Of a stretch of 4,033 nucleotides of DNA, positions 829 through 3,494 are shown piece after piece. Positions within the stretch are counted from its first letter, which is position 1; each line of letters opens with the position of its first letter. This DNA is from a virus (taxonomy: Duplodnaviria; Heunggongvirae; Uroviricota; Caudoviricetes). A model generated the notes under the pieces. That model ran no database searches and was not told where the DNA came from. It saw nothing but the letters and a program-made list of their open reading frames with translations. The DNA lies in the IMG/VR virus record IMGVR_UViG_2695420699_000010; one strand, given 5' to 3'. The position numbers were made by a program, and so were the translations under genes.

Positions 829-1878
829 GTGCGGGTATTACTTCGACCTGTTCTGGTGCCGGAACTCGGTCTGGTTATCGTTAAGCCAGGCCGTGAATCA
901 ATGTCAGCATTCCATAACGGCAGAATACTGGTGGAGCCGGAACCAAAAAGCATGCGCGGCCTGCCATCCGGAACCGTTCCTGCCGTTCGCCAGCCGCTGG
1001 CGGAAGACAAATCTCTGCTGCCATTTTTCAGCGACGAGCGGGTAATTCGTGCCGCTGGCGGTGCCGGTGCACTGTCTGACTGGTTATTGCGTCACGTTAA
1101 ATCCTGCCAGTGGCCTCATGGTGACTATCATCACAGTGAAATCGTCATACATCGTTACGGCACCGGCGCGATAGTGTTGTGCTGGCACTGTGACAACCAG
1201 CTGCGCGACCAGACATCAGAATCACTCGATCAACTTGCTCAGCAGAATCTGGTTGCCTGGATGATTGACGTCATCCGTCACGCAATAAGCGGTACGCAGG
1301 AGAGGGAGTTATCGCTGGCCGAATTATCCTGGTGGGCGGCCTGCAATCAGGTGGTGGATGCACTACCTGAGGCAGTAGCGCGTCGTTCGCTGGGATTACC
1401 AGCGGAAAAAATCCGCTCCGTATACCGTGAGAGTGACATCGTACCGGGAGAACAGACAGCCATCAGCATACTGAAGCAGCGCACAAAAAATATTGCGCTG
1501 CCACTTCACGTCCACCAGCAACAAAATCCATCACAGAAAAAAACGGTTGTCAGTATCGCCGTTGATCCGGAGTCTCCTGAATCGTTCATGAGGCGGCCTA
1601 AACGTCGCCGTTGGGTTAATGAGAAATACACGCGCTGGGTAAAGACACAGCCGTGTGCGTGTTGTGGTAAGCCAGCTGACGATCCGCATCACCTGATTGG
1701 TCATGGTCAGGGGGGGATGGGAACAAAGGCCCACGATATTTTCACGCTACCGTTGTGCCGGGAACATCACAACGAACTTCATGCTGACCCGCTGGAGTTT
1801 GAGAAAAAGTACGGCTCTCAGGTTGAGTTAATTTTTCGTTTTCTTGAGCACGCCTTTGCAACTGGCGTGCTCGGGTAA
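829..1878 (+). CDS. DUF968-like prophage protein (YdfU-like) with C-terminal Cys/His HNH-like zinc-binding motif, 349 aa
   Basis: Long uninterrupted ORF. GTG 829 with GGAGG (820-824) 4 nt upstream and overlapping the upstream stop (TAATGTG); alternative start ATG 901 (MSAFHNGR...). C-terminus QPCACCGKPADDPHHLIGHG...LPLCREHHNELH (nt ~1651-1790) is a CxCC...HH...C..HH pattern. Position between replication genes and rusA/Q is typical of nin-region genes in lambdoid phages. Confidence 0.85.
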   Translation: MRVLLRPVLVPELGLVIVKPGRESMSAFHNGRILVEPEPKSMRGLPSGTVPAVRQPLAEDKSLLPFFSDERVIRAAGGAGALSDWLLRHVKSCQWPHGDYHHSEIVIHRYGTGAIVLCWHCDNQLRDQTSESLDQLAQQNLVAWMIDVIRHAISGTQERELSLAELSWWAACNQVVDALPEAVARRSLGLPAEKIRSVYRESDIVPGEQTAISILKQRTKNIALPLHVHQQQNPSQKKTVVSIAVDPESPESFMRRPKRRRWVNEKYTRWVKTQPCACCGKPADDPHHLIGHGQGGMGTKAHDIFTLPLCREHHNELHADPLEFEKKYGSQVELIFRFLEHAFATGVLG

Positions 1879-2936: not shown

Positions 2937-2948
2937 ATCGCGTATGTT
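2920..2948 (+). promoter_or_regulatory. Candidate late promoter (pR'-like) overlapping the 3' end of the Q gene
   Basis: TTGCAA (2920-2925), 17-bp spacer, TATGTT (2943-2948); predicted start near 2955. A second -10-like TATAAA sits at 2952-2957. Sequence-only prediction. Confidence 0.3.
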
Positions 2949-2997
2949 TCGTATAAATCTGATATTTTGCCTATTTTGTACGCGATGGCAAAGTAAG

Positions 2998-3025
2998 AAA
3001 AAAACTGCCGCCAGGCGGTTTTTTT
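2998..3025 (+). terminator. Strong intrinsic terminator (tR'-like) downstream of Q
   Basis: A7 (2998-3004), stem CCGC (3008-3011) / loop CAG / GCGG (3015-3018) with flanking G-T closure, then T7 (3019-3025). The A-run/T-run symmetry makes it potentially bidirectional. Confidence 0.7.
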
Positions 3026-3071
3026 ATGTCCGAAAATCGCGTCAGTACAGTAAACGCGCTGGCGGCGGTGA

Positions 3072-3366
3072 ATACCGGTCTTTCAGCTTGCTGGCTTTTT
3101 CGACAAGAGTTATTGGTGTGTCACGTTAACCGGAAAAAGGAAAGTTTGAGAAACGCGATCTGGCACAGGCGGTTATTAATGCTGCCTACCTGGTGGCCTG
3201 TGCAGATGGTGAATGTGAGGCTTCCTAGAAATCGAAGATCGAACAGGTACTGCGTAATCAGCCTGCGCTGTCCGCGTTTACGTCAGAAATAATTGAGCCG
3301 GAAGAGCGCAAGGTGCTGGAAGAGATTGCCGGTGTTCTGGGTCTTCGTCTGGAGAATCACCTGTGA
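3072..3366 (+). pseudogene. Decayed TerB-like (tellurite-resistance TerB domain) gene: frameshifted, with an in-frame amber stop
   Basis: One frame gives ...AGFFDKS... (3072-3149). The next frame gives GKFEKRDLAQAVINAAYLVACADGECEAS, then TAG (3226-3228), then KSKIEQVLRNQPALSAFTSEIIEPEERKVLEEIAGVLGLRLENHL, stop 3364-3366. The FFDK start, the hydrophobic-A-x-ADG-x-x-x-x-E core and the C-terminal acidic-E..IA..LG pattern resemble TerB as I recall it. No single intact frame exists. Confidence 0.4.
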
Positions 3367-3494
3367 CGGTAAAACTGCGCCTGACTGTGGCTGCACTCCT
3401 GCTGTTTCTGGTGGTGATGGTGGATTTCACCAGCAGAATCATGTCGGTGCTGGCGGATGGGGTGCTGGTCTGCGGCATTGTGGTATTGCTGTAG
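3363..3494 (+). CDS. Hypothetical 43-aa hydrophobic (membrane) peptide, GTG start overlapping the upstream stop
   Basis: GTG 3363 overlaps TGA 3364-3366 (GTGA); GGAG (3351-3354) 8 nt upstream; stop TAG 3492-3494. Product VTVKLRLTVAALLLFLVVMVDFTSRIMSVLADGVLVCGIVVLL is almost entirely hydrophobic, consistent with one or two transmembrane helices. It is absent from the supplied ORF track, most likely because of its short length. Confidence 0.35.
   Translation: MTVKLRLTVAALLLFLVVMVDFTSRIMSVLADGVLVCGIVVLL

Follow-up and report, generated by a model that had tools for sequence, protein, structure and literature searches.

A YdfU-type protein encoded beside rusA in a lambdoid prophage carries a predicted HNH nuclease domain and a putative second zinc module

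Introduction

What does the protein encoded directly upstream of the RusA Holliday-junction resolvase do in a lambdoid Escherichia coli prophage? We analysed a stretch of 4,033 nucleotides (the window), which represents the nin/Q region of such a prophage and is most similar to genomes of STEC and cattle strains (~95.6% identical). The gene in question is of the ydfU type, within the DUF968 family, and belongs to the 'y-ome', the set of E. coli genes that are poorly characterised. Genes of this type are found in thousands of prophages of E. coli, Shigella, Salmonella and Klebsiella, Stx-converting phages included.

A zinc-finger HNH motif was noted in DUF968 by Curtis et al. in 2014 (PMC4118853). 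Jablonska et al. subsequently classified YdfU/DUF968 as group 7 of the His-Me finger proteins in 2017, described RusA, Q and antirepressor genes as neighbours, and from these proposed a role in recombination or repair (PMC5714182). For the sister family DUF1364/YbcO a nuclease function was predicted by Kaur and Subramanian in 2016, who linked it to Ref and HNHc_6. The first-pass annotation of this DNA had described the family as uncharacterised. This is true of its biochemistry, as we found no biochemical study of a YdfU-type protein in the literature, but not of its class, which was published in 2014 and 2017, is reflected in the label of PHROG 96 and is joined by a 2026 study of the relative Gp16. 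The HNH reading of the YdfU C-terminus is correct and already published, and having been in print since 2014–2017 it is nothing new as a discovery. The practical value of our analysis lies in a map that pinpoints residues for mutagenesis and in a putative second zinc module in the N-terminal half, the latter a minor new detail.

The ydfU-type gene and its family

829–1878, + strand: ydfU-type gene (DUF968 family), 349 amino acids, GTG start, intact; taken from the open reading frame list

The GTG start at 829 is preceded by a Shine-Dalgarno sequence, GGAGG, at 819–823. The protein matches the Pfam DUF968 model (PF06147) with 257.4 bits and an E value of 8.9e-77, residues 160–346 aligning to model positions 1–171, which is far above the gathering threshold of 27.8 bits and places it within the DUF968/YdfU family. 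It also matches PHROG 96, 'HNH endonuclease', at 4e-174. Alignment to K-12 YdfU (b1560, Qin prophage), which is likewise 349 residues long, is gap-free over 349 amino acids with 84% identity, and all the conserved cysteine, histidine and aspartate residues are common to both. The Qin gene is also placed in the same way, with a Q-like gene downstream and hokD close by. On sequence grounds the window protein is an ortholog of Qin YdfU.

The first-pass annotation had looked to profile searches for a link to DUF968 and to the HNH clans, and both were found, the second at lower strength. HNHc_6 (PF16784) scored 23.1 bits with the whole protein and 25.5 bits with the C-terminal fragment, below its gathering threshold of 26.6; some close homologs do pass this threshold, for example P0009 with 29.9 bits. 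RecA_dep_nuc (PF16786, the family of P1 Ref) reached 17.2 bits (E 0.0056) with the C-terminal fragment only, below its cutoff of 26.9, and covers the same stretch of the protein as the HNHc_6 match. The Pfam YbcO/DUF1364 model (PF07102) was not matched, no NCBIfam model was found for the protein, and the NinB/Orf-like N-terminal domain that is part of the HNHc_6 architecture is absent. Using an exhaustive HMMER search of representatives clustered at 50% identity we identified 3217 relatives at E <= 0.001. The family is present in 187 phage records, among them ST64B, cdtI, mEp460, Stx2-converting phages and phages of Klebsiella and Vibrio.

A conserved Cys/His cluster

The following features were mapped in the C-terminal part of the protein; conservation percentages were calculated from the best 150 of the 3217 relatives, taken as representatives clustered at <=50% identity.

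1591–1614, + strand: basic segment RRPKRRRW, residues 255–262, just N-terminal of the HNH domain; P257 88%, K258 99%
1648–1790, + strand: Cys/His cluster, in frame, residues 274–321
1654–1656, + strand: codon of C276; Cys in 95%
1660–1662, + strand: codon of C278; poorly conserved, 44%
1663–1665, + strand: codon of C279; Cys in 78%
1687–1689, + strand: codon of H287; His in 91%
1690–1692, + strand: codon of H288; His in 93%
1735–1737, + strand: codon of D303; Asp in 99%
1756–1758, + strand: codon of C310; Cys in 86%
1765–1767, + strand: codon of H313; His in 51%, Cys in 27% (either in 78%)
1768–1770, + strand: codon of H314; His in 90%
1780–1782, + strand: codon of H318; His in 91%

Bases 1648–1790 encode QPCACCGKPADDPHHLIGHGQGGMGTKAHDIFTLPLCREHHNELH, followed by ADP. 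Eleven cysteine and histidine residues (4 Cys, 7 His) fall within 45 residues; when the protein was shuffled 20000 times, a 45-residue window as dense as this arose in only 99 cases. The cluster proposed for this stretch is thus confirmed by direct reading of the codons, by the shuffle test and by conservation. Its position needs correction, as it spans residues 276–318 of 349, having been assigned to the last ~60 residues. The CxCC motif that had been read here holds in its outer cysteines, C276 and C279, but since C278 is conserved in only 44% of the sequences the zinc knuckle is better described as C276-x2-C279. Lack of conservation of the Cys/His residues had been named as grounds for refuting the zinc-coordinating, HNH-like reading made at first pass; they prove to be conserved across the family, and the reading is supported. 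The putative structural zinc site, of the form CxxC...CxxH/C, has its candidate ligands present and conserved, and the interchange of histidine and cysteine at position 313, a pattern typical of a metal ligand, favours a role for this residue in zinc binding. Lys300 is also conserved, in 94% of the 150 representatives. The basic segment that precedes the domain may contact DNA or a partner, a suggestion that follows from its conservation.

As the main alternative we considered whether the protein could be a non-catalytic zinc finger, with treble-clef fingers only, that serves in DNA binding or regulation, for example with Q on late transcription, or by binding branched DNA without cutting it. 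We regard this as unlikely. His287 and His288, Asp303, His314 and His318 are retained at 90–99%, above the zinc ligands Cys279 and Cys310. Furthermore, in a subclade of alignment A1 (for example P0167, P0179 and P0208) Cys279 and Cys310 have been lost, yet the HH pair, Asp303, His314 and His318 persist, which suggests selection on the catalytic set. Both observations fit a catalytic centre better than a purely structural finger. Divergent members of the same alignment, P0220 and P0254, have lost the catalytic histidines and kept Cys276; these are probably inactive.

Predicted fold of the C-terminal domain

1495–1548, + strand: linker between the two modules, residues 223–240; pLDDT <50, gapped and variable in alignment A1
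1612–1875, + strand: predicted C-terminal HNH (beta-beta-alpha-metal) nuclease domain, residues ~262–349

An AlphaFold2 model built from 27 diverse sequences has a mean pLDDT of 85 and consists of two domains joined by a linker. In the C-terminal domain the model places a helix (265–272), the CxxC knuckle (C276-x2-C279), two strands (285–288 and 306–309) and a final helix (311–319). This is the beta-beta-alpha-metal arrangement of the His-Me finger/HNH superfamily as far as the prediction goes. The first strand ends in His287-His288, where the general base of a His-Me finger would sit. The final helix would carry Cys310 and His313, the putative zinc ligands, together with His314 and His318, which are positioned as candidate ligands of the catalytic metal.

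Foldseek returned no significant match for the model in the PDB (best E 0.42); the top ranks were nonetheless HNH proteins. Searches of PDB sequences gave only chance matches to C2H2 zinc fingers with single-sequence phmmer (E ~1) and only YbcO with the family profile (E 0.41), so sequence alone gives no link to a solved structure. Taking structural and sequence comparisons together, the best relatives are Ref, YbcO and HNHc_6, and the C-terminal domain is very probably homologous to their HNH domains. The HNH domains of Cap5, GVE2, McrA and Cas9 come lower in the structural comparison.

Lambdoid and HK97-like phages often use HNH proteins as accessories of packaging (background cited in PMC12817073), and a terminase-associated protein aiding cos cleavage and packaging, in the manner of HK97 gp74, is therefore a role to weigh. 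We judge it highly improbable. The packaging HNH proteins are not among the best relatives, the gene belongs to the early nin/Q region and does not adjoin terminase, and a related prophage encodes a small HNH endonuclease separately, immediately before its terminase small subunit.

Characterised relatives

The closest match to the C-terminal profile among the proteins compared using hhalign was Gp16 of Staphylococcus phage PhiNM1 (probability 95%, E 3.9e-8, 40% identity over 60 columns), followed by YbcO (83%, E 8e-6) and Ref (69%, E 4.6e-5). Gp16 scores 29.1 bits on the Pfam DUF968 model, above the gathering score, and matches HNHc_6 as well. It shares with the window protein the CxxC pair, the gap of nine residues to the histidine and the motif C-R-E-H-H-N-E-x-H. 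The zinc residues Cys148, Cys181 and His184 of Gp16 correspond one-to-one to Cys279, Cys310 and His313 in the window protein, and those of its catalytic centre, His157, His185 and His189, correspond in the same way to His288, His314 and His318. The gene for Gp16 is an early one and part of a replication/recombination module that includes RusA; the N-terminal domain of Gp16 is NinB-like, whereas that of YdfU is unrelated.

Gp16 is reported to interact with RecA, to be expressed early and, as a purified protein, to nick plasmid DNA in vitro (PMC12817073, NAR 2026). Growth inhibition by Gp16 was completely abolished in zinc-ligand mutants, partly relieved by H185A and H189A, and not relieved by H157A (PMC12817073). 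That the zinc-ligand mutants have stronger phenotypes than the catalytic-centre mutants would agree with a non-catalytic protein. Equally, as H157A, the counterpart of His288, is still inhibitory and H185A and H189A have partial effects, the catalytic roles assigned from the motif may be wrong in detail. Since Gp16 cuts plasmid DNA without RecA, dependence on RecA is not constant across the family.

Ref of phage P1 was detected by BLASTP against the window protein (E 7e-6), with PCxxC, HH(I/L)xG and LPLCRxHH in common. Ref, an HNH nuclease, depends on RecA and cleaves inside the D-loops that RecA makes (PMC4330346). Ref and Gp16, the nearest relatives for which experiments are reported, are thus both nucleases, which argues against a non-catalytic role for YdfU. 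The relatives also differ from YdfU. Ref (RecA_dep_nuc; PDB 3PLW) has an unstructured basic N-terminus of 76 residues where YdfU has a folded zinc domain, and an extra active-site histidine (H153) past the helix. Because the N-terminal domain of YdfU is unrelated to both the basic tail of Ref and the NinB-like domain of Gp16, targeting may differ. YbcO from the DLP12 prophage (DUF1364; PDB 3G27) is a single domain of 96 amino acids with no N-terminal module, and does not have the first CxxC cysteine pair or the second histidine of the HH pair.

The pairing of an HNH module with differing N-terminal partners is also what might be expected of a selfish homing-type endonuclease, or of a host-directed toxin or anti-defence nuclease, in place of a recombination enzyme. 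Gp16 inhibits host growth (PMC12817073), and Ref is reported to increase the lethality of ciprofloxacin (PMC4713147). We consider such a function for YdfU improbable. The gene is not associated with an intron or intein, the PADLOC defence models found no match in YdfU, nor in the upstream open reading frame or RusA, and the gene is widely retained intact in resident prophages, which disfavours strong toxicity under repression.

Two further phage proteins were compared. NinG/Rap of lambda resembles the proposed YdfU in being a His-Me finger recombination nuclease encoded late in the nin region ahead of Q; the 2017 classification places NinG/Rap in group 24 and YdfU in group 7, and no sequence match to NinG/Rap was detectable in the window or in 80 related loci. 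PdcB of phage P1 is a full-length relative of YdfU with 26% identity. The pdcB gene is non-essential and of unknown function, and is immediately followed by lpa, the gene for the late promoter activator (PMC10695390). This position would fit a regulatory, non-catalytic protein. As this distant homolog is dispensable in P1, any role is likely to be accessory.

We also observed that P1 encodes both Ref, which is the HNH core alone, and PdcB, and that the order pdcB-lpa echoes that of ydfU-Q.

A putative N-terminal zinc module

1060–1293, + strand: N-terminal HNH-like zinc module, residues ~78–155, with putative ligands C93, H101, C118 and C121
1105–1107, + strand: codon of C93, putative ligand; 96%
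1129–1131, + strand: codon of H101, putative ligand; His in 72%, Cys in 17%
1180–1182, + strand: codon of C118, putative ligand; 99%
1189–1191, + strand: codon of C121, putative ligand; Cys in 58%, His in 41%

A separate model of the N-terminal region (pLDDT 89, pTM 0.75) contains a helix (78–89), a loop carrying Cys93, a hairpin (105–110/113–118) and a second helix (119–125). In the predicted structures the order of these elements is the same as in the C-terminal module. No conserved histidine is present at the place of the general base. With moderate confidence we interpret the N-terminal half, which the first-pass annotation did not mention, as a zinc module of the treble-clef type whose HNH-like fold is weaker and apparently non-catalytic; we found no description of it in the literature on DUF968 and YdfU. 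That one module of the protein is predicted to have this fold with no catalytic histidine would suit the non-catalytic alternative.

The similarity between the two modules might reflect an internal duplication. However, aligning one to the other with hhalign gave an E value of 0.18, which is not significant, so the likeness is confined to structure and may have arisen by convergence or date far back. Curtis et al. proposed a NinB/Orf-like N-terminus for Gram-positive 'DUF968' proteins; this is unsupported for YdfU. In four database proteins (P0146, P0186, P0188 and P0241) the N-terminal 150–270 residues of YdfU are joined to tail-fibre or tip domains. These fusions look like products of prophage rearrangement or assembly chimeras, and we do not regard them as genuine architectures.

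Gene neighbourhood

53–381, + strand: hok/sok type I toxin-antitoxin module; sok RNA at 53–231 (Rfam sok, 84.3 bits), Hok/Gef open reading frame (HokD-like) within 169–381
549–827, + strand: upstream gene of unknown function, 92 amino acids; PHROG 1212, hypothetical in the closest genome
1891–2250, + strand: RusA Holliday-junction resolvase gene; Pfam RusA 5.7e-16, PHROG 34 at 9.5e-54
2247–2936, + strand: Q antiterminator gene; Pfam Phage_antiter_Q 1.3e-82, start placed from a related annotated genome and the sequence

The genes around ydfU are closely packed in the window. The upstream open reading frame, for which no Pfam, NCBIfam or PADLOC match was found and which has relatives in 16 of 80 related loci, stops 1 nt before the ydfU start, and the two are probably translationally coupled. 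The gap from the ydfU stop to rusA is 12 nt. The stop of rusA and the ATG of Q share the sequence ATGA at 2247–2250, which suggests that resolvase and late-gene antiterminator are translationally coupled as well.

To place this arrangement in context we compared 80 loci from different Enterobacterales species, located using an 11-sequence subset of the alignment. In at least 69 of them the DUF968 gene is followed immediately by a Q antiterminator gene (PF06530 in 49, PF03589 in 20), and 18 downstream genes match DUF1133, in part overlapping the Q matches. The first-pass annotation had described the gene as tightly linked to the resolvase. RusA is directly adjacent in the window, but in the other loci the order varies: RusA lies directly downstream, as here, in only three of the 80, and the usual downstream neighbour is Q. 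Judged by the downstream gene alone the linkage would appear not to be conserved. We rejected this interpretation, as a scan of the whole locus finds RusA within ~4 kb and in the same orientation in 61 of the 80, as a rule upstream by one or two genes. In 18 loci it adjoins the DUF968 gene on the upstream side, and in ~40 it is 0.7–3.5 kb upstream, mostly ~0.7–0.9 kb or about one gene; what separates the two is usually a gene for an Ant-, Rha- or KilA-N-type antirepressor. Qin differs from the window in the same respect, with ydfU next to the Q homolog ydfT and no RusA between them. NinG, NinB and NinH were not detected in the 80 loci. Overall this neighbourhood of RusA, Q and antirepressors reproduces the picture given for group 7 by Jablonska et al. 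(PMC5714182).

The neighbourhood bears on two of the alternatives. A shifting position relative to RusA, with antirepressor genes inserted between, would suit a homing or host-directed nuclease; against this, the slot just upstream of Q is conserved across Enterobacterales. That same slot, with Q directly downstream in most loci, could point to a regulatory protein, and one member of the family has been annotated as a transcriptional regulator (PMC5714182).

Proposed mechanism

Our preferred interpretation, which we consider reasonably likely, is that the YdfU-type protein works as an HNH nuclease, stabilised by zinc, whose substrates are intermediates of recombination or replication in the early phase of phage development. 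Jablonska et al. arrived at the same hypothesis for group 7 (PMC5714182). The gene would be a delayed-early (nin-region) gene of the lambdoid prophage, and its product would consist of two zinc-braced beta-beta-alpha modules separated by a flexible linker. The C-terminal module (~262–349) would be a catalytically competent HNH/His-Me finger nuclease of the Ref/YbcO/HNHc_6 lineage. In this domain Cys276, Cys279, Cys310 and His313 are predicted to hold the structural zinc, His288 at the end of strand 1 would act as the general base, and His314 and His318 on the helix, aided by the invariant Asp303, would bind the divalent metal needed for catalysis. The N-terminal module (~78–155) appears to have kept a four-ligand zinc site and lost the catalytic histidine, and would most likely recognise DNA structure or a partner. 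The most likely activity is nicking or cutting of DNA at recombination or replication intermediates, which would feed a phage recombination pathway completed by RusA. The analysis itself establishes family membership, residue conservation, the predicted fold, homology to Ref, YbcO and Gp16 and the gene neighbourhood, and from these zinc binding, nuclease activity, substrate and RecA involvement are inferred.

By analogy to the closest characterised relatives, P1 Ref and PhiNM1 Gp16, the host RecA protein might recruit the nuclease. We put forward direction by RecA only tentatively. It is conceivable, if rather doubtful, that YdfU-type proteins are tandem His-Me finger proteins in which the degenerate N-terminal module (Cys93, His/Cys101, Cys118, Cys/His121) guides a Ref-like C-terminal nuclease to RecA-coated or branched DNA. 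Were this the case they would add a third class, with an architecture of its own, to the phage nucleases guided by RecA, and one that is widespread among prophages of enterobacteria. If active, and perhaps directed by RecA, the nuclease could affect prophage recombination and mosaicism as well as the efficiency of induction. It could also change the sensitivity of the host to DNA-damaging antibiotics, as is reported for P1 Ref.

Other features of the window

3007–3026, + strand: terminator-like hairpin GCCGCCAGGCGGT followed by a T run, ~70 nt past the Q stop
3363–3494, + strand: small hydrophobic open reading frame, counterpart of a DUF3927 gene in a related genome
3538–3742, + strand: STnc100 small RNA gene, 154 bits
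3743–3804, − strand: AgvB small RNA gene, 96.5 bits
3957–4033, + strand: start of a SASA-family carbohydrate esterase gene, which continues past the window end

The closest genome (95.6% identical; L001 9086–10765) has ~2 kb of extra sequence between Q and a TerB-like remnant, at the place of ~2937–3300 in the window. This extra sequence consists of a small open reading frame, a frameshifted DNA methyltransferase gene, tRNA-Ile and tRNA-Arg. The window carries no tRNA here, which reflects either a deletion in the window or an insertion that was never gained. Further 3′ of Q, the genes for STnc100 and the anti-GcvB small RNA AgvB lie back to back; both are full length, and each ends in a terminator-like hairpin.
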